Source: Lama glama (taxonomy: Eukaryota). Taken from it: 64,000 bases of DNA. The position numbers were made by a program, and so were the translations under genes. This document shows positions 9,462 through 58,800 of this stretch, piece after piece. The DNA is taken from assembly GCA_028534125.1 (NCBI GenBank), contig CM052816.1, positions 57,228,001-57,292,000 of the forward strand, written 5' to 3'. The notes below the pieces were generated by a model. It was given only the letters and a program-made list of their open reading frames with translations. It was not told the DNA's origin and did not search any database. Every line of letters starts with the position of its first letter. Position 1 is the stretch's first letter.

Positions 9462-9525
9462 TCACAGTGGTCATTTAAGATGAAATCTCATGCATGTAAA
9501 CTGGAGTCTCTTAAGCTGCACTTTG
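9462..9525 (-). pseudogene. mt tRNA-Val pseudogene
   Basis: CAAAGTGCAGCTTAA...TTTACA..AGATTTCA between 12S and 16S. Confidence 0.8.
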
Positions 9526-10437: not shown

Positions 10438-10506
10438 TGTTTATGGAGTTACTAAACTACTCCAGGCATTTTTAGTGCTTTGCTTTACTTACTAAGCTAT
10501 AGTAAC
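10438..10506 (-). pseudogene. mt tRNA-Phe pseudogene
   Basis: GTTACTATAGCTTAG..AAAGCAAAGCACTAAAAATGCCTGGA...CTCCATAAACA. Confidence 0.85.
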
Positions 10507-11617
10507 AAATTAGATACAGGGAGATCCCTGTCCATCAAAGTCTTGTGAATTTAAGTAGCATGCTAGTATTAGTGGAAGTATCTTAAATTACTGGGGAGTG
10601 AGTTTTTGTATTCCATAGGTTTAAAGTTAGAATTTTGGGTGTTTGAAATTTTCATTTAGTTAATAAGGATCTTGACTGAAACATGTCTTCATTTATGATT
10701 TAGAGATTTAATTTATTATAGAATGGGGGAAAGCAGGCTTTTATGTCCTGTAATATTTTAATCTTGTTTTGAGAATTTGTCAAGATTGGTAATGTATACA
10801 ATTTGAGGTCTACAGGAGCTAAGGGGAGTTTGCTGAGCTAATTTTTATTGGCTATGTGCACATACACATATCAATTTTCTTATGTACTGTAAACACTAAC
10901 AACTTAGGGTTGTTGATGTTGGAAAATAATATTCAATATAGGCTTAGCTACAAGTTGCTTAACTGTATTAAAGCCTTAGATGGCCATAGTTCAGTCACAG
11001 CATGCCCCCAAATTAAAAAATACCAAATATATGACAACATAGTTATGTGTGCACATGGGCCGATTAGTTCATCAAAACGTCTTATTTAAGAGGAAAGATA
11101 AGGAGATTTTTAGGGGAGATGATCCTGAAGAACCAGATGCCAGATATAGTTCACTTCTAGAAACCACCACATGTTCTGGGCCCAAAGCAAGAAGAGGGGC
11201 ATGTTTGGGGATGAGCTGCTGCTTTCTCAAAGTTTGGGTGTTAAGGAAGTCGTTGGTCATAAGCGTGGTGACTAGAGTTGATTTGACTTAATGGGATATG
11301 AACAATTAATATGTTCTATGTAGTATCAGTCATATCTCTTGGTTTATGAATTATCCATGTGGAAGAGAATTTTATGTATGATAAACCACTCTGTGTATTA
11401 TTTAATATTCATAGTTTGCATTTACACAGATGGGATAAACAATGTATGATTACATACGTATAGAATGTATCATGTACAATCAAGTATATATATATATAAT
11501 GATACATTGTAACAGGGCAGATCATTTAATATACAAAGTACACAGCAATGGAATCATCTAGAATTTTTAAATACTGACATAGCCCATGACAATATTTTAC
11601 TGTTTATGTGCAACTTG
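10507..11617 (-). other. Fossil mitochondrial control region with central conserved domain and CSB1/2/3-like blocks
   Basis: Central domain CTCTTAAATAAGAC..., CACATAACT..GTCAT..TTTGGTATTTTT; CSB3-like 10762-10783, CSB2-like 10815-10831, CSB1-like ~10880-10900; TACAT motifs near 11450-11510. Confidence 0.88.
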
Positions 11618-11747
11618 CAGGAAATAGTCTAGGGAGAATTTCATCTTGGGGTGCTGATGGTAGAGTTGGTGCTTCTTCCTTGATGTTCTAGGCGGGTTTT
11701 TCTCTTTCCAGTTTATAAGACCAGAGTGATCAATACACTATCAAGGC
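11618..11747. pseudogene. mt tRNA-Pro (~11618-11683, +) and tRNA-Thr (~11684-11747, -) pseudogenes
   Basis: Position between control region and CYTB; GGGTGCTGATGG (Pro), CTGGTCTTATAAACTGGAAA (Thr). Confidence 0.8.
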
Positions 11748-12040
11748 TTCTTTTTAGATTATTTCTGATTAAGATTGTGGGTGGCTTAAGTAAAAGACTA
11801 AGAAAATATAAGATTGATGCTAGTTGGCCAATGATGAGAAATGGGTGTTTAACTGGTTGTCCTCCAACTCATATTAATGTTAGTAGGTCTGCTACTAGTA
11901 GTAGTCAGAATAAGCATTGGCTTAGGGGTCAGAATATTATGCTTTGTTGCTTTGATATATGAACTGTTGGGCTAATTACTAGAATTAGGATAGAAATATT
12001 AGAGCTAATACACCACATAACTTACTGGGATTGATATTGA
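11748..12040 (-). pseudogene. CYTB: mt CYTB 3' fragment (right NUMT edge)
   Basis: Minus strand [47 protein letters not shown]. Confidence 0.93.
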
Positions 12041-34800: not shown

Positions 34801-37800
34801 TTTCTGTGTTATAGTTTTTTTTTTCTTTAACTGACATACTCTTCTTTCCTAACCACTTTTACTCTGCTTCTGAAAGCTTTAGAGGTAAGATTTATTGATA
34901 CTTAATGTTGAGGGGAGAAGAGCAGGGAGATGGAAGATAATGCAAAAATACTGTACATTTTTATAATTTATCCAATGATATCAATGGATCTTGTATAGAA
35001 ACTGGACATAATTAGTACAAAATTGACAGTTAAACCTTAGAGTTATTCTTATTTCTGAGACACTGTACATTGCTGGAAAAAGAAAAATTAAGTAACAGAG
35101 TATTTTAGATACACTTTAGGATCATTAGTCAACACATACATTTGCTTTTGATACAATACCTTGTGAAGTTTCACAGTGCTTTTCAATTTCAGAGAGAGTC
35201 CCAATCAAATTATCATCTTCTATCACATTTAAATAAAACAAAATATTGCAGGAAAAGAAAATACTTTCAAGAAACAAAAAGAATCAAAAGCTTAAATCTG
35301 AACAGGGAGCTGAATAAACGTCACAACAAAGAACTTTTGAGGTAGATTTAAAGAGACTTTGTTGTACAAAATCCACATTACATCCTGCCTGCCTGTATCA
35401 TCACTGTCACCTACTTGTGGTTCTCCTATTGCCAGCATTGACCCAAAACTAAAAACAAGTATCTATCAATTTAATCAAAGTTAAAGTTCCCATCACAAAA
35501 AGAAAACTTTCCAAATAATCTAGAGATAACGGGAAAGGACTAAAGCAATTCTGTTTACCCAGACTACATGCCTGATTTCTAACAGGACCCATGTGTTTTT
35601 TAAGACTTACTGGATATATTTACACAAAGTTGAAAGATGGGAAAACCAGTAATGTTCACAAAACTATATGACAGTAACATCATGTTTAGACATTTAGAAA
35701 TCAAATCATGTTTATCTCATTTTAGCCAATACTACTCATGCCATTTTTACAATGGCTACACACAGAAGATGCATTTCTTTGTGTGTGTACTAACAAATCA
35801 AATTGGGTATAATTAAAGCAGCTAAATTAAGACTGTGATTCTCAAACTTAACATGCATCAGAATTGCCTGGAAGGCCTGTTCAAAGACTGCTAGCCTCAC
35901 TCCAGAGCTTCTGACCTAGAAGGCCTGCATTTCTAATCAGTTCTCAGGTGATGCAGACAGATGCTGCAGGTCCAAGGACCACACTTTCTGCACTGCTGAA
36001 TTATGCTCAGTTAGTGCAAACCAGTAATTTTTATTATCAAAGATTAACTATTTACTACTGAGAAACAGCAATGGGGACAATTATAATTCTTATGACAGGT
36101 TGTTGCTCCTGAAATACAGCTTCTCTGTTTAAGTGGCTTTGTGCTTTGTATATTATATTAGCAGTGGGTAAGAAAAATGGTGAGAATTTGTGTAAAGAAT
36201 TGAATAAAACTGATGACAGAAAAAACTCGAGCAAAATCTAGATATAAAATAATCAGTTTGTTTGGTGAAGTTTAGGTTTACAGTTATGCCTTAATATCTA
36301 GTTTTAAATCTGTATGATTTAAATTCTTATAGAAAAAATAAATTGATTGCAAGCACAAAACCCCTTTTATTGAATCAGTTGCTTTTAAAACAAATTTTCT
36401 TAGGAATCCAAGTATCAATTCACAGTAGAAAGGACTGCATCGTATTTTGCCTTCAACTATTTATACTGGTCAGTAGTTTATAAATTTAATGCATTCTTAA
36501 CAGTGCTAACCATGGTTAAAATTCTCTCCAGATAATACACAATGTGAAAGAGAAGGAAAATGTGGCTAGTTTGATAATGCCAGGTATGTTTCCAAAAAAC
36601 CAAAATGTTTAATGTTTAATTCTTCACTAGCCCATTAAAAAAAAAAGCCTCAGCCTGATCATATTTTGGATGCTAACTTTCCCATGTAATCGATGATAAT
36701 CACTTACCTACTGTTGGAGTATTGGCAGCACTTAATGAAGCAGAAGACGAGATAGAGGAAGAACTTTCTGCCCGGGCTAATGGAGCAGCAGGAGGTGGGC
36801 TGGTACTAGACGTTACAGGTGGGCTGAATGGCCTGGGCTTAAGAGCAAAATATTATGTACCAAAATGCTAAACAATTCCCCTCTTCTCAGAAAAGATTCT
36901 GAAGTATCAAGTAAGATTAATTTTAACATACTAAACCAACTTTATTGTGTTTCTTACAACCCACAGAGATGCCATATGTCAGTCATTTTCAAGAATATAT
37001 TAAAAGCTGAAATGGCTATTTTAAAATAATGCTGTTTAGAGAATCTTGGTATATAAAATATTTTCTGTATTTCCAAAAGTATGCTTAAGACACATTCTCA
37101 GAAGTTAAATTATTAAACAATGTGAAGGCTTCTCATACACACTGCAAAACTGCTTCCCTTTTGGGTTACTCACTTTACTGCCTATAAAAAAATATTTCTC
37201 TGGATTCTTGCCAGCAATAAATGGATGAGCCTTAGGAGAAGGAAAAATAATAAAATTTTAAAACTTGTAGCTAATTTAATAGATAAAAATAAAATTGGCA
37301 TTTCCCTTTTATGAATTGTCTATATTAGCTTTGTCTTACTGAGTCTGGGGACGACGTCTTAGTATTTATTACCCAAGCTTTCACTAACCCTTTTCTTTAA
37401 TGTAAATATTTTCTTCCTAAATATTGCTTGCCCTTTACTTTTGGCATTTACACATCTGTCCACATTTTCTTTCATAATTCCTTGTTAATGCTTCCTCATT
37501 GAGAAAGTTCACCCCATTCAGAGATTTGAGAAAATCTTAATTCTACTATCTTCCTATTTTCTAGTTAAAAATTACAACAAATATACAAAATATGATTCCA
37601 ATCCATTTATCTTTTACTTTGGTGAATGGATTTTTTTCTTTCAAAATTCCTAATTGTTCCTGTAATGTGTTAGCAACACTTCCTGAGTTATTTCACTTTT
37701 TAAAATACGGACTATTGAGCTTAATTAAAAATAACCTTTTCCTGTTTGTAAAACTATTAAGTGAATGCAAATTTATTTAGGGCCTAGTATGTGTCATGTC

Positions 37801-40800
37801 ATGGGTACTAGATACAAAGCAGTGAACAGAAAAACATTATAGTTTCTGTCCCCAGTTATCTGAGGAACAAGAAAAACAAAAGACAAAAACAAACCAAAAA
37901 GACTCCATAAGAAGCATTCACACATTAAAATTATTCAACTCTACATTGCATGAATATAAATGTACAGATATGTACTTTAATAAAAATCAGATTATACTGC
38001 CCAAAGTGCTTTATAATTAGTAAACCCCACACCCCCCAAATCAACTATTTTTAAAATATAGCTCCAGAGAATGGCCTTTTGATGTCTCATTATGTACAGT
38101 AGGTTGGAAAAATATAGCAAGGTATACAAATGTGGCTGCAGATGTATACAGATGGAGGTAGTGCAGTACATGAGGCCAAATATTAAATTCAACAGCTGAT
38201 CTGACTTAAAAGTTTGTAAAAATTTTAACTACTGTTGGGGCTGTTTTTCCTGTGGCAGCATGGCCTCATGGCCGGTATCATGTGGTTGCACTTTATGATT
38301 CATAATTACAAAGTGCATTTCATAATTTTTTAGGAAAAAACAAAAACAGCTCTTCTCTCAAGTGGCTTTCTCTTAACTTTCAAATGGCGCTGTCCAGTAC
38401 AGTACCACTAATACTTGATGTGTGGCTAGTTCAAACTTGAGCTGTATAAAATACACAGTGGATTTTGAAGACTTTGCATATACACAAAAAGAATACAAAC
38501 TCCCAATTTTTATATTGATGATATGTTAAAATATGTTTAATATACTGAGTAAAATTATTTTTACTGTTTCTACTTTTTTTAATGTGGATACTAGAAAATT
38601 TTAAAGTATATGCTGCTTATATTTCTATTAGACAGCACTACTTTAAAATACTACTTCTTAAACATTAACATGCATCAGAGTCACTCTGAGAGCTTGTTAA
38701 AACACAAATGCTGGGCCACTCTCCAGAATTTGATTTGTCTGAGGTAGGGCAAAGAAACTGCATTTCTGCCAAGTTCTCAGGTGATGCTAATGCTGCTGGT
38801 CTGGGGAACACACTTTGAGAACCACTGCTCTAGAATAATAAGGATTTCTCTGTAGAGGGGTAGGGAGAGTATGGTTATAGACCCTTTGCGCATGGAGTGA
38901 AAGGTATGAGCCTTCTCTCCAGAAAATACACATACAAGCATGCAAGGAAGAGTACTCCAATACAGCTGGAGAGAATTCGAATCAGCACTACCTTTTTGGT
39001 GGGCACTGCAACAGTAATCATCAAGAGTCTTAAAAATGTGTATACCATTTAGTTCATGAATTTTACTTTTAAAACTATTACTAAGGAAATAGTGTCTGCA
39101 AAGAAACAAAAATATTCATTAAGGCATTTTTTATAATGAAGTCCTGGAAATAAACTAAATGTCAAATAATCAGATTTCTAAAAACTTTCAAAAATTTAAT
39201 GCTGATAACAGGGTAGAAGATAGAGCATTTATGCTCTGCAGCCACTTCAAATGATGTTCCCTGAAGCCCTCAGAGGGTGGTTTCTAGAAGGCTCTCAAGG
39301 CTTGGGTAGGGAGTAAAGTATGATGTGAAAAAATTATAAAAGTCCCATTTTTACTTAATTAATAGACTTACAACTTGAGACTATTTGACAAAGGATTCTA
39401 CCACTTTAAAGAAGTCTGAAAATTATGGAATACTTTATGATATAGAAAAACATTCCCCAAATATTTTCAAGTGAAGATTAAAAAATACGTAAGGTATGAC
39501 CTTTTATTTAAAAATATATACCATTCATGGTAACTAACTTTTATGAGCATTGTACTTGACAATGCTTTAAGTGTTTTACATATATTCACTCATTTAAGTC
39601 TCAAAACAGCCTATTATCATACTCATTTACCCATAAGGAAATTGAGACTCTAAACTTGTCTAATGGTGCTCGGGTAATTAGTGTCTAACAAGCCTGTGCT
39701 TTTAATATCTACATTTTACCACCTCTGGATAAATACTTACACATTAAAAAAAATAATGAAAGGATATGTATAAAAATATTAACATGGTCATTATTGGATG
39801 GTGAAATATATAGAAGGAATTTTTGTTTTCTGTTTTCTCTATTTTCAAAATTTTACAACATAATCACACACTGATTTTGTAATCAGGAAAAAACACATTA
39901 AGATGTAGTAATTTTTAATGCTGTAACCAGAAACTGACATACTGTAATTGGCTATACTTCAAAAAAAATGTAATTTTCATATCACTTAAATAATAACCAT
40001 CTCCTTGGGAGCTTGTACTGAGTTGTCATTTTCCTTCCACTAAGTCAGCTTGGATAGAAGATCAAAGAAAGATGTCACTGTTTCAACACTTGGTGCTCTT
40101 AGCTTTCTTATTTATTTATGAAACATTTCCTATCCTGAACCATGTGACAAGCATGATGTAAAGTATTAACACATTAGCAAAGTATTAAGCATATAAAATT
40201 GGCTAAGGCTCTAGTGAGGGGAGCACACACACACAAAAGTAGTCCTCCCTTGGTATCCACAGAGTATTTGCATATAACCTTTAGGAAGCACATTCTCCAG
40301 AGTACTTTAAATCATCTCTAAATTACTTATAATACCTAAGACAATGTAAATTCTATGTAAATAGTTGTACATGCAATGTAAATGCTATGTAAATAGTTGC
40401 TGTTGTGTGGCAAATTTGTTTTGCTTTTTGGAAATTTCTGGAGTTCCCCCCCCAAATTATTTGAATCCATGGATGCAGAACTCACACAGAGGTCGACTGT
40501 GGGTCAACTGTATATACAAGGTGATCTATGCACTAAAAGAAGCATAAGCAAAGTGTATGGGTGTAAGGAAGAGAATGACTAAATCCAACAGGAGAGGAGT
40601 AATAATCAAAGAAGGCTTTACCTAGGTTGTGATATCTAGCAGGGTCTTAAAGAGAGCAGTTTCCTACATAAAAACTGAGGGGCATGTCAGATAGAAGGAG
40701 CACAATAAGAAGACATGGATGCATAAAACAGCATGTGTTTATGGAAAAGTGGAAAGTTTTGAGTGGCTGGAACCTAGGCTGCAAAGAGGAGAAAGCTGGA

Positions 40801-43800
40801 CAGTTTGGTAATGCAGATTGTTGAGGTAACTTTATCAAGAGCCTTGTACATTCACTTAAAACGTTCAACCACATGGATTATGGAGTACCACTGGAGATGT
40901 ATATCGGGAAAAAGATTAGTCCTGACATTTAGAAATTTAATTCTGGCAATTAAACTGGCAAGTAAAAGATGAAGCAAAGCAGAATAGACTGAAGGAGAGA
41001 AGACTGGCTTGAGAGAGTCTGACTCTGAGTAGAACTAATGTATTTTCATTATCTGACAACTTTTGAAAACCAATGCCTTTTTTTTTTTAAAGCAATATGC
41101 ACTTTTACAAGCCAGTTAAGTGATGTGAACTGCAGATTCCTTATGTATAAAATAAAGATGGACTAGATGCCTACCAGGACTCCCCTGGCAGTGTACTTCT
41201 AAGGCCTAAAAACGGGCTACCTGCGTACTTGACTTCAATATTGGAATTTAAGTAGAATTATATGAAAATTGCTATTTAATTATGAAACAATGGGTACTGA
41301 ATTGTATTTTTTTATCTTTTATCAACTTTCTCAGGAGAGCTCTTTCTTCCTGAACAATGGTTTTGCTCCACAGGTATGAACACTAAGATAATATAGGGAA
41401 GTAAAGAAAGTATTAGCTGGGATAACTTTTCTGTAGTTTGAGAAGCATATAGAAAAATATCATTTGTACATTTGCATTTTAAATCAAAAGTTATAATTAA
41501 AAAAAAAAAACAACACCTGAGTACATACTATTTCATTAATCCCACTGAGTTTGCCTGAAGTAAGCTTTGGTCTGGAAGCAGGCCTTGGAGGTGGGACAAT
41601 GGTGCCTATAGAAAGAGGAGTTGTGGGCCTGGCTGGTGGGTGGAAAAAGAGAATTTGAAGAAAATCATTAGTATGCAGCAATCCTTACATAAAAACATTC
41701 TATTATAGAATGACTAGGTTTCAAAGCTCATTTTTTTCAGGGTTTTTTTTTTTTTAATATAACTATAGCTATTTATTGAAATGCTGTGACTCTATCAAAT
41801 ACACTTTTTTCAAAGCTACCAATAATATTCCTGAAAAAAATCATTAAATTCTCAGTTAAACTGACATACTATAAATTATATTCCTGTTTCAATTATTTAT
41901 GCACATAAAAATTAAATCTAATAAATTAGCTGGTGAAAATTAACCAGTTTAGGGTCTAAGATCTTTAGTTTATTGCCAATACTCCTAACTTTATAGTTAT
42001 GCAAGACCAAGCCTGTGACGCAACATCTTCAGAGTAATAACATGAACTCTAAATAAAACATTACCTTAATTAAATTTGAAATCTCACTTTTAAGTTGAAT
42101 CACACTGTACCATTTTTTGGTGACAATCAAAAATACCTCATTAGTTTACCAAAAAAAATTTCCCCAAACCACTAAAATTAATTTTTGGTAAATACAGAAA
42201 ATCATACCTTAAGTCTTCCTAAATCCTATATAAATTTAGTGTTCAATATTTTAACACCATTTTCAAACTTTACAATTTTATAAATCAGAAATACTAAATA
42301 ACCTCAGTATTCCTAATTAAAAATAACTCAGCATGGTAGAAACTAATGAAATTCAAGTATACATCAAAAGTCACACATGTATTAGCATAATCAAAGCAAG
42401 TGTGAAGAACAGAAGCAAATACATTTAAACCAGCTTTAATTACTTAAAATGATCTTCAAATCCTTTTGGACCATTCTAAAAGATGGGGCTATAATTCAGA
42501 TTGAAGACTATAATACGGATGGGAAGAAATGTATTTCAATAAGCTCTGTAAGTTTACAGATGTGCAAAGTTAAAAATATATGAATAGGCCTAAGCATATA
42601 CATGATGAAGCAAACAGGAAAGCTGAGGACAGTAAGCTTGGGCAGCAGTGGAGGCATGAAAGGAAAGGGCATGGAGGTGACAGAAGACATAAAAAAAAAA
42701 AGTTAGTCACACACAGAAGTGAAGGTAAATGTATGGGGGTATGGAATCATTTAGAAAGTAGATCATATGAAGAGAGAAAGGATGCAAGCACAGTTGAGAC
42801 TGCTTGAAGAAAACATCAAAAAGCTGATAAGAAATCAAGCTTAGATCCTTCTTCCAGTCAGCACCAGTTCTTTCATGCTGCACCCCTGCTTTAAGCTGTA
42901 CATTGAAAGAAATGTGCACTAGCCTGAGGACCATAACACTTCTCTGAGCCATGACATATTTACTTTGAAGATATGTTCACTATCAATGAAACCAGCACTG
43001 ACCAATACTCAAGTTATTTCAAGCTTGTGATAGAGCTTAACATAGTAGAGACATTCACTCCTGAAGCTTCATTAATGATCATGTGACCTGTCCAAATGGC
43101 ATTTAGATTGACTCATATCAAGCCCGGTTGAAGTTCAGCTCCTTCAAATAATCAGAATTTGCTTTTTGAAAAAAGTTAATACAATATCTATTAACATCAC
43201 TGTTTACAAATGAATCTATTAATTGTAAGTTAATAATAAATTTATAAATTATAAATCTATCTCTGTATGGCAATTAGGTACTGCTTTTAGGAGCCTCTGA
43301 AAGAGATTACTACAATTGATTACAGGCTTAAGTATCTTAATTGTGTTTTGTGGTGGTGGTGCTGGTGGTGGAGCTCACTTCTAAAAAATGTCTATTAGAT
43401 ACAGTATTTCAAGAAATAGGAAGTGACTTGTAAAGTATAAAAACATAGGCAATAAGAGCTAATCTACATCTGCCTTCTGACATTACCTAAGGGGAAGGGA
43501 CAAAGCATGTTTCCTGTAGCATTCTTCGCCTGAACAAAGGTACAGACTAATCTAGAATCCAGAAGTAATGATAATGCAGAAGAAAAATTAGCAGCATTGT
43601 TAGCTGCTTCTGTTAGTAGTTTTTCAGGATATGTAATAGTATGGCAAAGGCCACTCTGATCCTCAGAGATGCAGCTGTTAGAAGATCTGTCATCCAAAGC
43701 ATCAAGGAACCCAAAGGTATTTTCAACTTTATAGTGCATCTCTGGAAAGCCTTATAAGTGCCACTGGAGTCAGTAATTTTAACAAGTTCATCAGTAAAGG

Positions 43801-46800
43801 AAATCCACTGACTACAACCATGAAGCAAAAGGAAATTTATGCTGGCTGGTGGTGGTGTTACAGCAGGATAACATAGAGGGTTGATGGAACAGTCTGGTAA
43901 TGGGTTTTCTAGACCTAAAATCTGACCTGGTTTCAAGTAAAGATTCAATTGTTACACACCCAGACAAGTCAGTTTGGGAGAGAAAAGTAAAGCTGTATTC
44001 TGTTCATTAAGGTCAACAGAAGAAGAGGAAAGCAATTGAAAACAAGAAGTAACAGAAAAATTCTAGAAATAAAATATAAATCTATATAGCCAAGTAATTC
44101 TTATTTCAGGTTAATGTTACTTTAATTACTCAAAGCTAGAAAAATTTAATACATGGAAAAGAGCTTGAAACCCAACTTTATATTAACCAAGGAAGATAAA
44201 TAGGAGAAATAAGAAACTTAAAATATAGATGAGTAATATTTGAGGTCCAAAAATATATAAAGGCAGAATTATTCCTGTTTCCCAGAGGAGCAAAAGGTAA
44301 TGTTAACAGTAAAAGTCTAAAAAGATATGACAAGGTATCACAGTGATAGTGCTTTATACATGTGTTACTCGACAAAGTGCCTGTCTGGCTAGTAATAAAA
44401 CTTGAAACTGTTAGGAAGTAAGAGGAATTAATCAGTTTTGGATTTAATATATAAAACTTAGCCTAATATTTTTCAAAAGATAATTCTGTGGGGTTTTTAC
44501 AGAACTCAGGTGCTCAGTTAATCCACGGGTAGAGGAGAGATGGTCCATACTAGCACTTTATCAAAAAGGAAGTAGATGTGACCTATTTACATTAAATTAC
44601 ACATAAATATTTTATTATATATAAATTTATTTATATGTAAATGATACGTAATGTTTATTTATGTATCTACATGGTGGAAGAAGCAACTGAAACTACTTCT
44701 ATACCAAGCTCTAAGTATGCTTTTTAAACATACAACAACATTTATCAGTTATTAACTAGAATTATTTTCTTCGAGACTGCTTTAGCTGAGATGGTGTCAC
44801 TAATGAATTAAGATTCTTAAAGAGACAGAAGAGAGTAGGGAATAATCTGACAAACCACACCTTGCGAAAATGTGAAAATGGGTACCTGTGTAGATAATGT
44901 TAAGATGGGAGAGATGCACTGCAAAGAGGTGAAAGAAAATTTAAGACAAAATACCTATTTCACAATTTCACTTAGAACCAGTCTTATAAAACATCATAAT
45001 GTATTCATAAGTTTTTATCAATAATTATATTCTGCTCAAGTGAAGACATAATCATAATTACTACATAGCAGAATGTCTTTTCAACATCACTAACATTCTT
45101 TGAAGGGAAAAATAATTTGACATTATTTTTCAGAATAAATAGGAAGGTTTTAAAAGGCATACCAAAATAAATTTTAAAACACACAAAAGGTTAATTTTTT
45201 ATCATTTCCTACCTACTAAACATCAAATGACAGCTGAATGAAAATGTATTATTTTCTACCTGAGGTTGAAAGTGATATGGGCAAAACATTCTTTAGACAG
45301 GGAGCAAGAAGAGGGCATGTTTTTGAGAAGAATGAGGCTGTGCTGAAGGAAACAGCAAAAAACAAAGGGTGTTATGAAGAAATTTCTATATAACTAAATA
45401 CTATGTAATAACAAAGTGAAAACTTTTATTAAAGATTTAAAAAATAAGTCATAAAAGAATATTAACAAAATTAAAAAACATTGCTTAGGACTCCTTTCAA
45501 TCTAAAAACAAAAACACTATTCTGACATTTTCACTAAACAAAAAAGAGATGTTATTACAACTTCAGTTTTTCTTGTACAATTGTTTTACTTACAAAATCT
45601 ATTAGTAAGATTAGTTTCCTAAAACAAAATAGTAACAAAGCCCCATTGAGAGAGGCTATAATGCCACTTTAGAATATGTTCAATTATCTAGTGACTGTTT
45701 CTTGCTGTTTTACAAGTTTAGGTGCACATCACCTAATACTTTCTCTTCAAAATTCCTAATTGTTTCAGGTTAAGGTTGCCTAAAATCCATTTATAATTTC
45801 TTTTTAAAACATTTAGTTTCTAAACAGTCCAATTTTAAATATTAGTATTTATGTTATTATTTTGTTAATCTGCCAGTGTGTGATAAATAGAACAAAGACT
45901 TTAGAATCAGTAAGACTCAGGTTTGAGTCCATGCTTCATTTCCTAGTTATATAAAGTTCCTGGTCATCTCTGAGCTTTATTTTTTTTCATCTATATAATA
46001 GAGAGACAATAAGAAGGATTCCATATAGCAGTTAATGAGGTGAAATCAAATAGAATGTGCAGATTTCAGGAGAGACGTAGCAGGAACTCCATCAATTCAA
46101 GTTCTCTTCCCACCACTCCAGCACTCCCTTAACCCCAACTGGCATTTCTGAAATCCCAGGGAAGGCTGAAGATCAACTTAAACTGATTTTATTTTCTCAT
46201 TTTAAATAAGCAGTTTTATTAAACATGTTTTGATTCTTGACAAATGGGATTCTAATATTTTGAAGAAAAGAGAAATTTAATATATTCTTGCCAAAAACAA
46301 CAACTAAAATTCATTCACCAAGTTCTTTCATGCATTTCTTGGGAAGTGCTAAAACCTTTCTGGAAGGCAGTTTGGCAATAAGCATCAATGGGCCTACTTT
46401 ATGATTCATAAATCTTGCATTGGTAAATTATTATAAGGATATGAGATGTGCACAAAATTTATTATATCCACAGATGTTTATAATACTAGAAAATCAGATG
46501 CAACTTGAGTGTCCATCAAGATAGGACTGATTAGATTAATGTATACATGCAGTTGAATAATATTAAGAATTATTATTTGGGCACTGATATATAAATGATA
46601 CCTAGAAATAAATATATAATATATAAATGAAAAAAAGTTGGTGTTTGATAAATTTTCATTCTTAAAGCCATGGTGTCTTTAAGGTCTGTTAACAAAAACA
46701 GTATAAAATCACTCTGATCTCGCAATATGATAGAGGACAAGTTAAAAAATTTTTGATCATTAAGTACAACATACAAGTAATGAATAAATGAATTAGAAAA

Positions 46801-49800
46801 AAGTAACTACTGCATTCCTTTACAGTTAAAAAAATACATATATATATATATTTACCTGATGATGACGAAGTTAGTGAAGCTGAAGAAGATGAATCAAGAG
46901 ATGGTCCAAACAGGGGGTCCCAAGCAAGTAAATCACTGTTCCCTTTACTGCCATAACATTTTAAAAGTAGATTTTAAGCAAAGGAGTATTTTATTAGTAC
47001 AAAATCTAGTCACTTGTTTTTATTTCATAGAAAAATTGTAACAGCTCAGTATATATGATTAAAGAGTTAGATATTCTGCCAGTTGACTATTTGAAGAAAT
47101 TTAATTAGCAGATTTCATAAACTGGTATTTATTAACTGCTATAAGCAAACCTACAATAACATTATGTGAGGTCGGTAAGGGAGGGTAGAGATTAATCCCC
47201 ACTGATTAAATCTTGTTATATTCTAACAATCTTAGGGGGCCTCAGAATGGAAATAATTTCAGCTTTACAAATGAAAAGCAGCACAGAGTCTAAATGACCT
47301 GCCTATCTATGGTAGCATAGCTAATTAATTCTACAGTAGTGTCAGGTCTGCCCATTCACATCTAGCATCCAGTCTTGGACAGAAAATTTCTTAAGTGATA
47401 GAAAATCAGGTAGAAATTTTAAAAGGCCATACTTACTTTCAAAGATGAAGAAAAAGGGTAAAAGATTTTTTTAAAGTACTTTTTAAGTACAGAATGGTGG
47501 CTTAAGCCCCATCTATATAAACTTCAAAGGTCTGATCACTAGAGTAGATCGTGCATAGGTGGGGTTTTTCCCTAGGCAATCCACTACCTGGGCCACTAAG
47601 TCGGTCTAGCAAAATGTCTGGGTCATATATGCCTTTTTATGAGGTTACCAAAACCATGGACAAAATTAAGAGTATCAGCAGTCTAGTTTCAAAAACAACA
47701 TGTATAACCAAAGATTTTCTTCCACTGACTTCATGGAATCCACTGGACCCAGTTACTCTCAGGATTCAACTCCTGGCTCTTTAGTGTGTATTTAATAAAG
47801 ACTTTTATATAAATGTTTCTCTTTTTCATATTAGTCACAGCCCTTTTAAGATGCCTAATCTCTAGGATCTTGAGCATGTGATCTTTGCTACCACTTCTTT
47901 TTCTTAAATCCAGCTTTACTGAGATTTGACTGACAAATAAAAATTGTATATATTTACAGCATAAAAGAGAACATTAATCCTCATTTTAAAAAATTTAATG
48001 TATCAATCTGCCATTATTTAAAATATTTTTCAAAAATCTTAGAAAACAGGCCCACTATAATACAGTTATCTAAGAAACATGTATCTAGTATTTCAGCATG
48101 CACCGACATGGAAGCACAGTCATATGATAACACCTAGAATCACAACTGCATAAATGATTCTTAAAAACAAAGTCTTAAAACACTAAACTTCTCTTTAAAT
48201 ATGACAAATCAAATGAATACCACCACTCTGCTCAGTTAGTGCCTAGCTTCAAAAGTTTCAATTTTAAACTACCCCTCTAATTAAGTCTACTTTTACTCAT
48301 ACAAAAAAACATGAAAAGAAAGTAGTCTTATTGGTAAATACAGAAGTGAAAAAGGACCTATGCAACACTGGCTTTATACACACACACATTTTTTTTTTAA
48401 AGAAGAGCTTGCAACATGTCTTCTAGACCTCTCTTTTTTCAACTAAGTTGAGATACTTCTTCATTTTGAGGGTCATAAAGTATACAGTTTATTTTATAAG
48501 GTCACAAAAAAACTGAAGGAAAACAAAATTTCCATGAGAATAACTAATTAGTTGAAATACAGATGTGTATGAATTTGGGATATCATCATTTATTCAGAAG
48601 CAGTGAGGACATCAAGGCCAAAATAGGTGAATGGGTTTTTTGTTAATTATCATAAAAAGAAATATTATCAAATGAGAAATAATTTAAAACATCTAAAAAT
48701 TCCACATGATGTTTCACAGCTTAGGAAAAAGGATGATTAAAAACACTCTACTGGAATTAAAGCTGCAGAGATAATAAAACTCTCTAGAAAAAAAGGACAA
48801 AAGAAGAAAATTTTTCATGTTTAAATTTTAAAAATTAAATTGCAATGGGAAGGGACACAGGATTTTTAGGGCAGTGAAATTTTTCTGTATGATACTATAA
48901 TGATGGATACATGTCATTAACTATTTGTCAAAACTTATAGGTTATACAACACCAAGAGTGAACACTAATCTAAACCTTGGACTTAACGGTGATAATGATG
49001 TGTCAATGTAGGTTCATCAGTTTTGACAAATGTGCTATTCTGGTGGGTGATTCTACCAGTTCAGGAGGGGTTTGGTGTATGTGGAGGGAAAGTGTACATG
49101 CAAAAATCTCTATACCTTCCACTCAAACTAGCTGTGAACCTAAAATTGCTCTAAAAAATAGTCTATTAAAAAAATTTTTTTAATGTGGAACTTACTCATT
49201 GGATGCAGCAGATGGCTTCGATTTTGTTAACTCTTCACCTAATCAAAAAATTGAAATATTATGAAAAAAATAATCTGAGTAATAAAAATATTTTAATATA
49301 GAGAGAAATACTACACATATAGTAGTCCATGAACAATTTAAAAAATATGGCATTAATAACATATATATATATATAATTTAAACAATTACAAAGAAAAGGA
49401 ACATGTCTTTAATAAGTTTTCTACCATGCTTAAGAATATTTAGCTGAATTTCTGCTAAATTTTTATTTCTTCTAATAGCTTTAGTAAGAAATGACTTAAA
49501 TCAACTAAACCATCATATTCATTAAACTGCTGTGAAAAATATATGGGCTTCAATAAAATTAGAACGAATGTCTAAATTCTTACGTATTACTTAAGAATTT
49601 TAACTGAAGAATCATGAAGGCATTTTTCAAGTTCTAATGATATTATTAGTGATTATTATATTGGCCAAAAGTAGTTATTAACTCTTGAAACACATCCTAT
49701 TTTGAAAAATAAAATTTTTACAACAACTTAGTCTATTTTGCTACCTTTTGCATTTCTAATATGAATCAAAAGCAACCGGTACACAGGGCAACAGCATCAG

Positions 49801-52800
49801 TAATGCAATAGTCCTGTTGGTTCATAAGTAATTTTCCCTGCACCTTAATGTTTTGCAACAAACACCAAGCAATGGCTAATATATCAACATGGGTAACTGC
49901 AACAAACTATGAGGAATACCACAGTGTACACTGATACTCATTCAAACCACATTCCTTCATTTGATTCAGTTTGGTTGGTTATTTTGCCTCAAAGTGCTTA
50001 TTGTGTTGTTCTCCATCTTTCTGAGTTTTTCCCTCATCATCATAACTCAGTAGACTTCCTTTATACTCATTTTCTTCACATACCTTATCAAGCTACTTAC
50101 CACTTATTTTTAAAAGTAAAATCCTACTTTTAGCTTGATATTTGTTATGAGTTTAACGGGTCTTTGTAATTGTGCTAGAATTTTCACTGGGACTGATGTT
50201 ATAGTTCTGGGTCATGAGGAAGTTATGCCAGTTAAACAGTTTAATACGTGGCTACATTTTTCAGAAATCAGCAGAGCCAAAGAGTAGCTTCTAAATAAGC
50301 ATGTTAAAGTTTAAGGTATGTCTCAACACTAAAAAAAAATAATATAGATAAGTTGTCTTCTGTTGTAAAGTAAGTATCTTTCTAGTCTGTCATTAAGGCT
50401 CATGATGAGAAAAGACGATTTCTACAACTGTATATGTTAGGCTACAAGCTTAGCACATTGCCTGATAAACTTAAATAGACTTAAAATAACCAATTTAAAC
50501 ATCAGACTTACTAGATGAATTCCGATTCATCTGCACCTAAAACAGAAATATAAAAATAAGTGCCATTAAACAAATAATTTGGTAATAAAATATCTGGTAA
50601 AATGTCAATACTGAGAACTAATTTTAAGTTATTTTTAATGTATCTGCTCAATTGTAAACTGTATTTACATAAAAAGATTACAGAAAATACTTTCAGTAGT
50701 TTTTTGTCTTATAATTTAAAAAATACATATACCTTTAACATTCAACAAAAAGTTTCAAAATACTAATTATCTATATAGCAAGATACCATGGCTTGCTAAT
50801 TTAAAAACACAAATATTGTGCAAATCAATGTTCAAACATAATGATTTTTTTTAAAGTCAACAGGTAAAAACATAAAATCTTGCACTTACTGGACTGTGTC
50901 TCTAGCAGTAGTACATAGAAGGGAAAAGAAAAAATAGTGTTAAAAAATAAGAAAAAAGAAAAAGTGTTCATTCTATAATTTAAAATATCACATTTCCCTA
51001 GTCATCCATCTATTCCCTTCTGAAACATACCTAAAATCTATACACCTAAGAACACATACATACACTTTTGGAGGGAAAAGAACTTAAGCTAGATAAACTG
51101 GGCAATAAAATTGTGAGATCCTCTTTCAAACCCAATATTAAGTATTAAATTTTTTATTTATTACTCATCTTCTGAGTACAAAATTATGTTTACTGTTTTT
51201 TTAAAAATAGAGAAGAGCACAAACGATCAATTATCTCACTACCCAAGATGGATGTTTAACATTTTGATGTATATTTCCTCCAGGCTTTTATTTGCGTATG
51301 TATTTTAAACTAGTTATTATGCTCTTACACAAAAAATTTTTAATGGTTTCACAACTTCCTACTTCATATATATATATATATATACACACACCATAATTTA
51401 ATCTTGGCATTAATCTTAATAAGCTAAGTAGAAATGGTCGAATAAAACCTCACTTCAGAAATCTCTTTTGGTGGAAAAAATAGTTCTCAAATTAAATTCT
51501 TAAAGTGCATGACTAGGGAAAAAAACATTTTTTCCAAACAAATACATATAGACTACTTACAATATTTAATTACATAACAATACGAAATAGTGTGAACTTT
51601 TATTCTTCATTATCAAGAATGGTTTTAGGTGGGGGAGGGTATGGCTCAGTGGTAGAGCACATACTTAGCATACAGGAGGTCCTGGATTCAATCTCTAGAA
51701 CCTCCATTAAAAAAAATACTAAATGGGGGGGAGGGTATAGCTCAGTGGTAGAGTATGTGCTTAGCATGCACAAGGTCCTGGGTTCAATCCCCAGTACCTC
51801 CATTAAATAAATAAACCTAATTACCGCCCCCCCCAAAAAAGAAGAGTTTTAAAAACAATTACGATAAGTATGTACAGATAAACTAAATTGACATTCTAAG
51901 ATATACTTTTTCCCATAGTTTAACATTTCTGAATTTAAGAGTATGACATCAATAGAAAGATCTATTATGATGATTTTTTTCTCCCTCAAAGCTATTAAGA
52001 ATCTCAGAATTGAATAAGTAACCAGTAAGAATTCTTATCTGTACCTCTCTTTGTATGAAAACTATGGAAAAACAAACAATACAGTGAAAGACAAAAAAAA
52101 ATGCAAAGATATAATTTAATCTTTAAATTCTTTTTTATGGAACTCTCTTTTATAAAAAGTTCATCCAAAAAATGAATGAAAAACTTTTAAAATTAGATGA
52201 GGAAGAGATTAACACTGCCCATTCACAAAATTCTGCCTGGGACAACACTACTTATAGTACAAATGGCAGAAATAGTGGATTTTCTGAATTTTTGTTTAAA
52301 ATACATTCAAAAGGAAATAAAACTGAGCGAAATTCACAAATTCACTTGCCTGTATAAAAATTATAAATGATATACCTCAATAAAGCTGAAAAAATTATAA
52401 ATTAAATATTTCCTCATCCAACATGCTTAATTATTGCTAAGTGATGTTTTATTTTTTATTAGTTCTAAAACTAACCAGATGCAGGTAGATGACATTAAAC
52501 AAACTAAGGCTTCCGTATAAAAACTGTAAGTGACTTGCTCATTTTCTTACTTACAGATACCGCTGGGGAGAGAGTTATATTTCCTATAGATACTTTTAAT
52601 TCATCCAATGAAGCCATTGTGTGATGTGAGTTATTTGGATGCATAGGTTTGATTTCTATCCGGTATTTCTTTGGTTCTTCATCTTCAGAATCAGAATCAC
52701 TAGATGAGTAGAAATGGTTCTCTTTGGTATGTGAGTTATCAGTTAAAGAATTCAGTTTTTAAGTTACCTTAATGCACAACAAATTTTTCACATATTTATA

Positions 52801-55800
52801 AAAAGGAACAACAACAACAAAAAGAGGTAAGATAGACTTTACCAGAAATGTAACTACTAATATTAATAACATGTCAAATAAAGGACACAAAAGAATTTTA
52901 TTGTAATTAAAAATCTGAAGAGTAAGAGTCTTTATAAAATAATAGATTATTTTGCTGTAAATGTCTACTTATATGCCAACACAATCCATAGAATATCCAG
53001 ATGATGAAAGGATATCATTCTGATTTGCTTCTGGTTTTATACTATAGCCCTCTTCATCTACATCAGGAATGTTCTGGGGGGAAAGAAAAAAAAAACTTTA
53101 CTATAACAATAGTTCCAGCTGTGAAAACCTTAAAAGTTAGCAAAATAGCCTTAACTATTACTGAGGGGCTTTATAATTTATCAGATATCAGTAGATTAAC
53201 AAAATTATTAAACCTGTGGGAAAATTATATCTTTTTAATCGACTTCAAATTATACTCCATGCTTCAGATGATCTGAAAGAGAAAAGCACTGCAAAACAAA
53301 CAGGAGAAACACTGAAAGGAAGAGAATAGGTGTGTGGGTAGGCATGCCAGCAGTTCTGTGGATAACCAAGTTTTCACCCAAATCTTCAAAGTGGAAGAAA
53401 AAGGCATAAGACTGTGTGTGTCCAGGGAAGAGAGGTGGTAAAATCAAAGGACTGACAGCTTAAGTACATGGAAATATCTACTATAAATACAGAACAAAAA
53501 AAACAGAAATAAAAGACTACCAAGAAAATTTAAACTACATTAAAATACCATCTCTTACCCATGAGACTGGCAAAAATTCAAGAGTCTGAAAATATACTCT
53601 GTTGGCAAAGCTGTGAGGAAATGTACTCTTATACTTTGCTGGCATAAGTACAAAACAGTACAATGCTACAGAGAGAAATTTAGCAATATCTAACAAAAAT
53701 ATGTATGTGTTTACTCATCCATGCAGGAATTGTTTCTAGGAATTTACCCCAAAGATACACCCCCAAGAATGTAAAAATACATGTGCAACAAGGTTATTTA
53801 TCAGAGAATATTTTTACTCAAAATTGCTGGAAAGTACTAAATGTCCAAGCATAGTTGAATACACTTCATACACAAAATGAAGTATTATGCAGCTATTAAA
53901 AAAAATGAGAAAGGTTTCCATGAAGCAATATGGAGTGACTTCTGGGAAATACTGCTAACTGAAAAAAAACTAAGTACAAAAGAACATGTATAGTATCTTT
54001 TAAGTAAGAAATTAAAAAACCATATAGATATCTGCTTATCATTATTAAGAAAAACTGCTGGAAGGATAAATCAGAACACAATAAAGTTGGCTACCTAAGA
54101 AGGGAGGACAATTGAGCAAAAGGGATAAAGGAGAGAGGGACACATCTAAATATGCTTTTGTGGTTTGACAACAGAATATAAAATTTATGCTCAAATGGAT
54201 CAGAAAAGAAACTATACACATATAAACACATGCACATATATACGGAAAATGCAACTGTTAAAGCAAATGCAGTAAAAAGTTAAAGGTATATACTTTGTAC
54301 TATTTTATTCTCATATTTTTTGCAGGTTAGAATTTACTTCCAAGTAAGTTTTAAAAATGGGAAAGAAAGAAAAGAAAAAAGACTGCCAAGAAATGCCAGG
54401 GTTTACTAGTTCTATATAATTGGGCAGCCAATATCCATCTCCTGGCAGTTTGCCATTCTTCCTCCAATCACTTGCTAAAGCTCAGCAAGAGAAATAGGAA
54501 GGATCACTAATCTGACAGGCCCAGCACAAGGTTTACACAGCTATAGCCTCCAAGCTGAAAAAACAGTCTAATGTAGCCAGCAGTGACTTAACAGACTGGA
54601 TTAAAGCCTAGAAGTGAAAAATCTAATATAGGGTAAAGAGCAGATTCCATATAAAAAGATGACAACTGATGTAATTATGACCCTACAAGTAAAGCATTTT
54701 CTTTGAGTTCTATATGTTGCTTGCTAGTATGCAAATAACATTTTAAAATACTTTAAAAACAAAGAAGCTTTGACAAATGTGGATTCATCAGAAATCAGAA
54801 TTAAAAAATTTTTTCAAAATACTTTATTCCTATTCCCAGTACCCTAGAAACATACCAGATATTGGGTTTCCTAGAGGTTTTATCTGGGAACTGCCACTGC
54901 CACTACTTTTAAATTTGTTTACAATACTTTATACAGGACAATGTAATAATTTTAAATAATACTGAGCTGTTCTCTGTTAAGACTGAATAAACTGCTTTTG
55001 AATCAATCTCCTGTAGATTACAACTATAAACTCCGGTCAAAATAAACAGACAACTATCTGAAGGTACTGAAGAGTGACCCACAGCAGCTACTTAAAAAGA
55101 TACACAAGGTGATAACACTTAAAAAAACAACAACTATAAATCAAAATGAAATTCTAAAAAAAGTTCAAATAATCCAGTAAAAAAAAAAACCCCAAAATTC
55201 AAAAAAAAAAAAAAGAGAAAGAGAGGAACAAATAGAAAACAAAAAATAAGATGTCAGACTTAAGCCCTCACATGTCAATAATCACTTTAAGTATCAATGG
55301 TCTAAATATAAAAAAATCTAGATTGGCAGAATGAATTTAAGGAAGTATGACCCAACTATATGCTACTCACAAGAAACTCACTTCAAATATAAAACAGAGG
55401 TAGGTTGAAAGGAAAAGGATAGAAAAAACATACCATGTAAATATTAGTTTAAAAAACAAAAAAGACAGTCACTATTAGATAAAAACAGACTTCAGAAAGA
55501 AAATGACCAGTGTCAGACATTATATCCACACAAAGACCTGTATACAACTGTTCAAAACAACATTTCTAACAGCCAAAAGTTGGAAACAACTAAATGTCCC
55601 ACAATAGGTGAATGGTTAAACAAACTCTGGTACATCTATATCATGGAATACTATTCAGCAATAAAACGGAATGAACTATTCATACATGCAACAACCTGAA
55701 GAATCTCCAGAGAATGGTGCTGGGTGAAAAAAGCCTATCCCAAAAGTTTACATACAGTATGATTCCACTTAAATAACATTCTTGAAATGATTTAATTATA

Positions 55801-58800
55801 GAAATGGTGAAAAGATTAGCGGTTGCCAGATCAGGGAGAAGGAGGGAATGAAACAAAAGTGGCTGAAAAAGGGCATCAAAATGAAAGATCCTTGGAACAC
55901 TGGAATTTCACACAACATTGTAAAATGATTATAAATCAATAAAAAATGTTAAAAAATACATATAAAAATAGTAATTTTCTTATTTAAAGGCTGAAATATA
56001 AAACAAAAATACTAGTATTATCTTAAGTAACATAAAGCACAGTGTTTTACAGAATACCTAGTTTTTTATTTTGGTACACCAATATCCTATAAAAGAGCAT
56101 AACATGTTGTGGCCAAAAGAAACAACAGTAATGCAAGCAAGAACAATAAAGGAAACAGCTGGACTCTACTGCACTTATCAACATGAGCAGTGTCTAATGA
56201 ATTCTAATGAACAATTTGAAAAATGTGTCTGTCTACACATTACTTACATCATTTGGTAAATCTACTCTCCCACTGTACCCACAGGGAGCTCCATCTGATG
56301 TCTTCTTTAATTACATATAAAGAAATATATTTAAACAAAGAAATATAAACAAACTTTCTTTAAAACAAAACAAAAAGCACAGAAAAGTACTAACCATGGT
56401 TGTTGCTATTTTTTCTAAAACTACAGTCTGCTAAACAAAATTCAAATATAATGAACAGATAAAAGCAGTATTTTAACAGATCTAAGAATCAATTAATAAG
56501 AGCACCACATTTTAAAATAAAGTAGGCAGGTTTGAAATTTGACATATTTCCCAAGAAAAAGCAATATTCTACGGCACCACTTCAATTTTAAAAGTAAAAT
56601 ATCCACTTTTCAAAGATAGTTAGAAATATCTTCTATTATTAGTAAACCAAGGGTATCAAAGCTTATAGCAATGTAAAGCCAAAAATGCATCTGTAAAGTA
56701 ATTTTTTAAAAATAATTTTAATAGTGAATTTATAATAACATGGTTAGTATTTTTCTTGGAAACGTTTGTGAATAGCTCAACCCAAATATGCTGGGTATTT
56801 CCTAATGGAAACAGCTAAACTGTTTATACCAAAATAAAATCTACTTACAAGTGAATCTGCATCAGGGCATTCCCTGTTAAAATAAACAAAATATTAGAAA
56901 TATTCAACTGTTAGAACTATCTGATAATTACACTAAACTGAAAGTTTTGGCTTTGGTATTTAAATATAACTTTTATTTAAACTCTAGGAAAATTAGAGAA
57001 ATCAAATCATGAAGATTAAAATATACCAAATGATTTTAAAATTCACACAAAGACATTACCCTGTACCATACTAAAAGATAAAATAAAACAAACAGCTTAC
57101 GAGTATTTTAAAAACTACTTTCAAAAGTACTTCTTTTCCATGAATACACACAAGAATCATATCAAGGAAGCTGTCAGCCCTACAAGGATTTCTGGTGGCT
57201 TTTAATCCTTCAGGTGGAGAAAGAAAAAAAAAAATCCCTCAAAGAAGAAAATCTGGCTTTAAAAAATAATCTATATTTTTATTGGTAAAAAATAGTAAAT
57301 AACATATTTAAATTAAAATTTTTTTAAACTTCAGTTTCCTTCCCATAAGCTAGCATATAGGGAAGTGAAGCCACCTTTCTCCAAATGTTAAATGAGCAGC
57401 TAGACTTTCAGCCAGAATAGTTTCTAGTCTAATGTAATATGTAATTGAGAACTGATATTTTATAATTTAACTAGTAAGCAAACAAGAATCTGGATATAAT
57501 CTAGTGAAAACTATTACTTTAAATGTAAAGCTAAAACATAAATATCAACATTCTCGACTAGCCAAATAAAGACCTAAAACTTAAAATTAAAGACATTAAA
57601 GCCATGAGGAGTAAGGTGAGAAAAATTTGTATGTATACTAGTTCTAAAACAAATTCACAAACAAAAATTAGAGTGCGTATTTTAAAAGCACTAGCTTAGT
57701 TACACAGTCTTTGGCTTGAGATATTAATGCATATAGTGTGAGATTTTGCCACTTTAATAATAAACTGAAAACACAGACATTAGATACACCTTAAGAGCCA
57801 AACGAACAATAATAAATGGCACTAAATATATAGGGAAAGCACTTAATATACAGGATAAACAGGTAATCTGTATCAATCCAAAGACTAAGCACAAACCAGG
57901 AAAATCTACAAATTAAAGAATTTTGTTCAAGAAAGGATGAAAGAGACTGAAAAAGTGAAAAAAGAGGGAGATGACTATACTGTTCTTAATCCAAATGGAA
58001 GCACCAAAGAGACAGGATGAATGCAACCCCCACATGTCTTTATATCCACTTAAAATAGCAAATTTTGAAAAAAAGCTTCCTTATTATTGGTAGATTATAA
58101 GAAATATTTTATCAAAAAAACCTATGCATACTCTGAAGAAATGTTCCAAAATAGGTACTAGGATAATAAGTTCAATCCCTGTACAGAATAAAATCAATTA
58201 AGATGTGAGAAGACTTTTCTACTTTCTTCTTTTTTTTTTTTTAAAGATAAAATGTAAATATAAAAGTAAGTATAAAAGTTCCAAACTGTTAATTCTCTGG
58301 CTTAAACCAGAATCCTCCAGTCTTTGCGGTAAAGCACTCATCTGTTTGCTTCACAGTGCACAGTGTGAGACCTGCAGGTGAAATCCCAGGAAGACTATGC
58401 TCTGAGCAAGACCCCTCATCCACAACTGCTGGCATTTCTAAAGCCTTCAGGCTATGAGAAGAAGCATGCCAAGAGCCTCGGGCATTTCAAGCAAAATGAA
58501 ATCTCAACTTTTTTTTCTGCCAGGAAGTGTTGAAAGAAGGCGATCATGATGACCTAGTATTCTTATTGGTCAAATATTCCAATATCCAAGTGGCCTAAAT
58601 GATCATACTGGGAAATTATGGTCATGAAAAATTGTTTTAAAAACATGAAATAAACAAAAATATTATAAGCTCCCTAAATGAACAGCTGTGAAAACCATAC
58701 ATTGTAAAAACATTTTAACTCTTTCTAATACAGTCACTAACAGATAAACTGGCTACACTGTAAAAATTTACTTTAAAAAATCAATTGTTTAGATTTCAAT

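Follow-up and report, generated by a model that had tools for sequence, protein, structure and literature searches.

Optional linker exons shared in part by FCHO2 and SGIP1, and a dead long exon of llama FCHO2 that retains a WXX[FW]X[DE]-type motif

The 3' two-thirds of the muniscin gene FCHO2 lies on the minus strand of the window analyzed here, a 64,000-nucleotide (nt) stretch of Lama glama DNA (assembly GCA_028534125.1, contig CM052816.1, positions 57,228,001 to 57,292,000). Its introns hold five exon-like segments, of 36, 57, 60, 83, and 497 nt, which we compared with the exons of the paralogous gene SGIP1. Two of them (57 and 60 nt) are firmly shared with SGIP1, one (the long segment) is probably shared, one (83 nt) is marginal, and one (36 nt) is unsupported. 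An earlier note on this DNA, which had proposed a hidden SGIP1-like exon set inside the FCHO2 introns, is thus partly confirmed, being right in outline and overstated in count. With a probability of about 70%, we favor the reading that FCHO2 and SGIP1 inherited cassette exons and kept different subsets of them; within it, the homology of the long exons, their docking on AP-2, and spacer roles for the short exons are inferred, and the 36-nt segment is taken as chance.

The gene was identified as FCHO2 by the Pfam FCH and muHD matches of the Vicugna pacos model P0467, 17 blocks of which match the window exactly and in order, and by exons that match named FCHO2 proteins. SGIP1 (contig C9) and FCHO1 (contig C11) were located in the same genome, which allowed a direct exon-by-exon comparison. 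To describe occurrence, we counted FCHO2 protein models, namely, the best 120 of 761 matches from one search plus 74 long-exon matches and further sets, from which 7 TMEM171 rows and 5 unnamed or structure-fragment rows were dropped. Models that did not span a junction were excluded from the denominator of that junction. The counts are query-biased and refer to predicted protein models, not to species, genomes, or reads, which belongs with the points against our reading that are weighed below; furthermore, one of the searches (the long-exon search, 74 matches) selected for long forms. Splice sites were scored with a home-made matrix built from 26 to 29 sites, whose training list contained a few misplaced boundaries (dropped if not AG/GT), and because this matrix is small, the scores are rough.

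The five segments were found where they had been reported, on the minus strand between canonical FCHO2 exons, and the 36-, 57-, and 60-nt segments are indeed open and in phase, with AG..GT bounds and phases 0-0, 0-0, and 1-1, respectively. The SGIP1 exon map of the same genome bore out the statement that SGIP1 has extra exons at these three junctions, with slots and phases that agree: the exon encoding block N1 is preceded by exons of 84, 72, and 57 nt (phase 0-0), the exon with block C is followed by exons of 93, 75, and 483 nt (phase 1-1), and GSSRGPSP is preceded by exons of 66 and 60 nt (phase 1-1). In FCHO2, the 57-nt alternative exon (KTSDGAP..., 56248-56304) stands directly before the AP2-binding block N1, and the 60-nt alternative exon (EDDNLIG..., 35160-35219) stands just before the mu-homology domain. 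We evaluated protein similarity by a shuffle test of 84 comparisons (4 short segments in 3 frames against 7 SGIP1 exons; 2,000 shuffles, floor p=0.0005). Only two comparisons reached the floor, the 57-nt exon with the SGIP1 57-nt exon (z=8.6) and the 60-nt exon with the SGIP1 66-nt exon (z=7.4), both of them colinear and in phase. The sturgeon versions of the two exons gave z=12.4 and 19.6 against SGIP1. At the DNA level, identity to SGIP1 was 29/57 for the 57-nt exon and 37/60 for the 60-nt exon against the 66-nt exon (p=1e-4 each). The 57-nt peptide is identical at 13 of 19 positions to sterlet and bowfin FCHO2 and at 7 of 19 to SGIP1; the 60-nt peptide is identical in pig, bat, and dolphin models and matches Tasmanian devil at 15 of 20 positions. 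Sterlet FCHO2 agrees with SGIP1 at 10/19 (57-nt exon) and 16/20 (60-nt exon) residues, versus 13/19 and 11/20 with the camelid-type peptides. Fish FCHO2 thus bridges the camelid and SGIP1 versions. Together, these comparisons of sequence firmly support that the two exons predate the FCHO2/SGIP1 split and have been conserved from ray-finned fish to camelid, the 57-nt exon as a paralog of the SGIP1 57-nt exon and the 60-nt exon as a paralog of the SGIP1 66-nt exon.

The SGIP1alpha 60-nt ENEQ exon was also considered as the partner of the FCHO2 60-nt exon and was rejected, with a protein p=0.98 versus 0.0005 for the 66-nt VSEDD exon. Since the FCHO2 60-nt exon also matches the ENEQ exon at 26/60 nt (ungapped DNA, p=0.003), the SGIP1 66- and 60-nt exons may be a tandem exon duplicate. 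They lie 937 nt apart (5197-5262 and 4200-4259 of SGIP1 locus L005), have a common phase, and have a 10-nt word in common, in different frames. The SGIP1 84-, 72-, and 93-nt exons and the ENEQ exon had no FCHO2 counterpart among the five segments, and the exon set is therefore common to the two genes only in part. When 10 kb of the FCHO1 locus was searched with four queries made from the short exons, no counterparts emerged (best E=1.2).

Both exons behave as live cassettes, with open frames, canonical sites, conservation, and gene models with and without the exon; for the 60-nt exon, the supporting models come from other mammals, not from camelids. The 57-nt exon occurred in 30/199 placental models, 14/17 camelid models, and 13/13 ray-finned fish models, and the 60-nt exon in 50/193 placental, 4/30 marsupial, 0/3 monotreme, 36/82 sauropsid, and 7/12 fish models. 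Contrary to the earlier note, neither exon is hidden, since both are already in public gene models. The pattern is patchy, and in this respect the distribution tells against an old and maintained exon set: among placentals, the 57-nt exon was found in camelids and canids only; it was in none of 79 sauropsid, 30 marsupial, and 3 monotreme models; and the 60-nt exon was in 0/17 camelid models. We thus weighed whether, in camelids, the two exons lack a function and are leftovers or noise of splicing, heading for the decay that befell the other two. Besides the patchy annotation of the 57-nt exon, its diverged canid form (18 residues, 72% identity) and the weak splice sites of the 60-nt exon (-0.4 and 2.5) would fit such a fate. 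However, the peptide conservation described above, which for the 57-nt exon reaches sterlet and bowfin and for the 60-nt exon reaches Tasmanian devil, speaks against decay; moreover, a neighboring exon that did die in this lineage has accumulated 3 or more frameshifts and no longer has either splice site. We therefore consider the noise explanation quite improbable.

Only the 60-nt exon is followed by ACTAAY (QKI-type) elements, which lie at +31 and +144 (window positions 35016-35129, minus strand). By the usual positional rule, such downstream elements would favor inclusion in muscle, heart, or glia; they are too weak a basis for assigning a tissue. No RBFOX sites were found near the six segments tested.

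The long segment is a 497-nt dead remnant of a linker exon of ~168 residues (43520-44016). It showed tblastn E values of 4e-14 to 1e-13 to four marsupial proteins, and frame-aware alignments spanned the full exon, with 79/160 residues identical to Tasmanian devil, 82/160 to opossum, 71/163 to kiwi, and 72/163 to turtle. The acceptor position reads TG and the donor position reads CT, the remnant carries 3 to 5 frameshifts, and its three frames contain 17, 9, and 3 stops. The description of this segment and of the 83-nt segment (which has a stop and is out of frame) as decayed was thus right for both, but the aligned span of 497 nt replaces the length of ~650 nt given before. A proline-rich tail (about 43250-43519) was rejected as part of the dead exon, as it falls outside all four full-length outgroup alignments; its similarity to SGIP1 (p=0.02) is that of a low-complexity sequence in the best of 3 frames.

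A WXX[FW]X[DE]-type motif, WISFTDE, is intact inside the dead exon (43787-43807). The perfect preservation of a 10-residue stretch at the motif, in about 165 nt that are open in one frame, raised the question of whether the exon is really dead: the lesions could be errors of the assembly, or a reduced exon inside it could go on supplying the motif. Hipposideros models do use a 42-residue inner piece of the long exon, but this piece starts after the motif. A residual mini-exon carrying the motif was searched for and rejected: all 10 open in-phase sub-exons holding it have donors scoring -1.3 or less, below every training donor. In addition, the exon carries at least five separate lesions and was in 0/17 models from four camelid species, so that survival of the exon in this lineage is highly improbable.

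Outside placentals, the long exon is live. It was included in 21/30 marsupial models, 3/3 monotreme models (in a shorter form), 89/90 sauropsid models (birds, turtles, and crocodilians), and 13/13 ray-finned fish models, but in 0/183 placental models, or 0/196 by a second anchor. Likewise, the long-exon search gave 74 matches among 887 candidates, none of them placental. These results show that the exon is dead in this genome and present in marsupial, monotreme, sauropsid, and ray-finned-fish models. Because it is live outside placentals, its decay is lineage specific, and we infer that it was lost on the placental stem or close to it. Other placentals probably retain the remnant as well, since the Hipposideros models use a piece of it and a Weddell seal model (P0064) stitches in a short piece resembling part of the long exon. 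In Hipposideros (P0049 and P0514-P0517), the 42-residue piece has the appearance of exon shrinkage.

The long exons of FCHO2 and SGIP1 occupy the same slot, directly before the RPTTP/RPATP exon, with the same phase 1-1 and similar lengths (158 to 177 residues in most FCHO2 and 161 to 170 in most mammalian SGIP1; 483 nt in SGIP1 of this genome). In SGIP1, the exon was included in 13 of the 112 models retrieved. Among 21 FCHO2 orthologs, the densest conserved block of the exon is SQSQWI.F..E, with the core W-I-S-F-x-[DE] that fits WXX[FW]X[DE], and KWV.F.D is conserved among 8 SGIP1 long exons. Position 6 of the motif is D or E in 18/21 FCHO2 orthologs, and the motif is matched by 7/8 SGIP1 sequences and by hagfish. 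A hagfish muniscin (P0191) has HWVSFDDE in an insert at the same place, which beat 200/200 shuffles on the FCHO2 profile. The motif arose in 0.4 to 1.8% of shuffled exons and was in none of 8 FCHO1-clade and 4 outgroup linkers.

Several results count against common descent of the two long exons. Their overall similarity was not significant (hhalign probability 1.1%, E=0.048, 10 columns); 0/8 SGIP1 sequences beat shuffles on the FCHO2 profile, and on the SGIP1 profile only 1/7 FCHO2 sequences came near (4 of 200). The motif lies at residue ~72 in FCHO2 versus ~40 in SGIP1, it departs from the consensus in turtle (WICFTG), paddlefish, and Aldrovandia (WISFTN, WIAFNN), and one fish SGIP1-like model lacks it. 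A muHD tree of 29 rows was a basal polytomy that left FCHO1, FCHO2, SGIP1, and hagfish unresolved, so that the order of exon gains and losses is not fixed. Finally, evidence for the placental-wide loss comes at the DNA level from this genome only and otherwise from models. The alternative is that the long exons arose independently in the same intron, the motif being a convergence on a short AP-2 ligand, with the 57- and 60-nt exons as the only ancestral ones. Repeated evolution is usual for short linear motifs, and such an origin would account for the lack of profile-level similarity beyond 10 columns, for the different position of the motif, and for the composition of the exons, which is proline-rich in SGIP1 and serine-rich in FCHO2. 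It would leave the common slot, phase, and similar length as coincidence; moreover, the exons neighboring the long exon are demonstrably common to FCHO2 and SGIP1, and the hagfish HWVSFDDESP resembles both versions. We regard independent origin as unlikely, though with appreciable weight. The long exons are thus probably homologs, and we call them so by slot, phase, length, and motif and not by sequence, because the profiles align over 10 columns and no SGIP1 sequence beats shuffles.

These data suggest how the present exon sets could have arisen. The ancestral gene, duplicated early in vertebrates, would have carried frame-preserving cassette exons in its disordered linker, and the FCHO2 and SGIP1 lineages would each have retained a different subset; SGIP1 is closer to FCHO2 than to FCHO1 (PMC4215538). 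The long exons would be homologous, with their common part reduced to one motif, W-[IV]-x-F-x-[DE], which is predicted to dock on the sandwich site of the AP-2 alpha appendage. WXX[FW]X[DE] is a ligand of the alpha-appendage sandwich subdomain, with an affinity of about 10 uM, and this site is distinct from the platform site (PMC5694535), to which block C (LFGPxL) binds at 100 to 200 uM for FCHO2 and SGIP1 (PMC9054013). Because the motif would dock on the sandwich site and block C on the platform, inclusion of the long exon would provide, some 90 residues beyond block C, another and stronger contact with the appendage and thereby raise avidity. N1 corresponds to residues 314-328, directly after the F-BAR domain (PMC9054013), and the 57-nt exon may serve as a 19-residue spacer between the F-BAR end and N1 or as a short G/Y-rich motif; the 60-nt exon may tune the run-in to the mu-homology domain.

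The occurrence of block C and of the putative long-exon contact across lineages forms a suggestive pattern. LFGPxL is present in 159/182 placental models, in which the long exon is absent, and in 0/82 sauropsid models (e.g., LFSSSL; P0123-P0179, P0559-P0591, and P0597), in which the motif exon is kept. Both occur together in marsupials (29/29), monotremes (3/3), and most fish (11/13 with LFGPxL). The complementarity is not strict, as both are missing from 23 placental models, which include some from rodents and bats. We tentatively suggest, at somewhat less than even odds, that the long exon is an unrecognized, splice-switchable fifth AP-2 contact, as old as the vertebrates and live in mammalian SGIP1 and nonplacental FCHO2, and that placentals on the one hand and birds, turtles, and crocodilians on the other would have met the need for appendage capture through opposite deletions.

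The 83-nt segment (45260-45342) is a frameshifted remnant of an 87-nt FCHO2 exon; it has kept AG..GT, but 83 is not divisible by 3 and an in-phase stop is present. The exon measures 87 nt in turtle, platypus, echidna, and phyllostomid bats; its forms in New World monkeys and marsupials have 30 and 21 nt, respectively. The segment is thus a real FCHO2 exon, dead in this genome, whose frame is kept in certain other amniotes. Against the SGIP1 75-nt exon, it gave p=0.0055 among the 84 tests. A post hoc start-anchored test with 7 orthologs gave p=0.02 to 0.04, a signal that came from bowfin (p=0.009), whereas turtle and platypus scored no better than chance; the SGIP1 93-nt exon, used as a control in the anchored test, gave p=0.73 to 0.95. 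At the DNA level, the comparison with the 75-nt exon gave p=0.21. From these sequence comparisons, it is possible that the two exons are paralogs.

The 36-nt open AG..GT segment (56395-56430, phase 0-0) lies 90 nt upstream of the 57-nt exon. To be open and in phase is by itself weak evidence for an exon, because 37,709 intronic bases contain 84 AG..GT segments that are open, in phase, and at least as high in splice score as the 60-nt exon. In the same bases, 4 such segments reach the splice-score level of the 36-nt segment (itself, a 33-nt variant, the 57-nt exon, and 1 unrelated segment), and 1 reaches that of the 57-nt exon. The 36-nt segment was in 0/340 FCHO2 models and showed no protein similarity to the SGIP1 84- and 72-nt exons (DNA p=0.31 and 0.95). 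The segment is most likely a chance occurrence and probably not an exon. A real unannotated microexon paired with the 57-nt exon would agree with its phase, with its mid-range splice scores (5.4 and 7.4), equaled by a single unrelated segment in 37.7 kb of intron, and with the extra phase-0 exons that SGIP1 has in this slot, but the score threshold was set by the segment's own scores, and neither FCHO2 models nor SGIP1 exons speak for it. We keep a small probability for this explanation because the splice scores are respectable and a real exon lies 90 nt away. Thus, the claim that four of the five segments resemble SGIP1 exons holds firmly for two of them, those of 57 and 60 nt; the long exon resembles its counterpart only in slot, phase, length, and a 6-residue motif, the 83-nt segment does so marginally, and the 36-nt segment not at all. 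Similarly, the case for descent from a set of ancestral optional linker exons can be called firm with the 57- and 60-nt exons and moderate with the long exon; it is weak for the 83-nt exon and lacks support for the 36-nt segment, in a set that is common only in part.

The canonical FCHO2 exons that frame these segments are, in the order of transcription, a 25-nt exon upstream of the slot of the 36- and 57-nt segments (56849-56873), whose SGIP1 counterpart also has 25 nt and ends in phase 0; the exon encoding block N1 (53016-53073); the exon with block C (WDPLFGPSL; 46856-46947), which ends in phase 1; the exon ending in TPTV, phase 1 (36708-36837); and the exon beginning with GVSRGPSP (32087-32198), all on the minus strand. 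After the N1 exon comes an AT-AC intron (52731-53015, minus strand), which separates it from the N2 exon; its donor ATATCCTTT and its branch-like element TTCTTTAAC resemble the minor-spliceosome consensus. An AT-AC intron is found at the same place in SGIP1 (L010, about 1155-1792). A 12-nt microexon (RHSP; 50891-50902, minus strand) is included or skipped in public FCHO2 models, and SGIP1 has short optional residues at the same junction. The window also contains a decayed mitochondrial insertion (about 400-5700 and about 9400-11900, minus strand), with weak Pfam matches to ATP6 and ND1 and with rRNA/tRNA matches at 5524-5674, 5362-5437, 2855-2920, 3094-3162, and 10447-10506. Between about 6000 and 8700 lie LINE-1-like frames. 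Two adjacent tRNA-derived SINE-like copies occupy 51630-51805, one of which scored as tRNA (51731-51802), and a 5S rRNA-like copy lies at 24130-24249.

FCHO2 starts clathrin-coated pits via AP-2-binding linker blocks that were mapped on the 810-residue form. If our reading is true, this form is a shortened placental variant, a form of ~980 residues that carries an additional AP-2 ligand is available to many other vertebrates, FCHO2 of birds and fish may act unlike human FCHO2, and neuronal SGIP1 retains that ligand in a skippable exon, a point relevant to the recognized confusion about SGIP1 isoforms (PMC8740024). As gene history, this is a neat but unremarkable instance of paralogs that share cassette exons and lose some of them, and most of the exons already appear in public models; what merits pursuit is the long exon with its motif, together with the lineage specificity of its loss. 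The literature searched, which included few subscription papers, held no account of these FCHO2 exons, of their SGIP1 paralogy, or of a muniscin WxxF motif, part of which could already appear in fig. S3E of PMC9054013 or in splicing atlases. A muniscin WXX[FW]X[DE] was likewise not reported in the portions searched, including those of PMC4215536, PMC8044098, PMC4921775, and PMC6499997, and PMC6912373 gives WxxF for stonins only. In the main text of PMC9054013, "WxxF" occurs 0 times, as does "isoform" or "splice". An FCHO2 exon named in a legend of bioRxiv 10.1101/2025.11.05.686847 has 113 nt, a length that does not correspond to any of the five segments.

Public FCHO2 gene models (RefSeq X isoforms, Ensembl/UniRef) hold the 57-nt, 60-nt, 87-nt, and long exons in various species, as unreviewed predictions without a statement of paralogy, loss, or function. 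The closest known system is the set of muniscin linker blocks N1, N2, N3, and C (PMC9054013, Zaccai et al. 2022; APA domain, PMC4215536), which lie in the same linker of the same protein; the 57-nt exon stands immediately ahead of N1, and the long exon follows C at a short distance. The four blocks were defined on the 810-residue human-type protein (PMC9054013), and the motif of the long exon would be a fifth, splice-dependent one. The SGIP1/SGIP1alpha splice variants (PMC8740024) resemble the FCHO2 exons in being alternative linker exons at the same three junctions, but the inserts of SGIP1alpha (28 residues and the 20-residue ENEQ) are not those shared by FCHO2, which matches the 57- and 66-nt exons. 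The predicted motif agrees with the sandwich ligands WXX[FW]X[DE] (PMC5694535) in consensus and in its unstructured acidic context, and differs in being a single copy that is dead in this FCHO2. Synaptojanin 170, a long-splice isoform by the title of its report, offers a further likeness, a motif carried by the long splice form.

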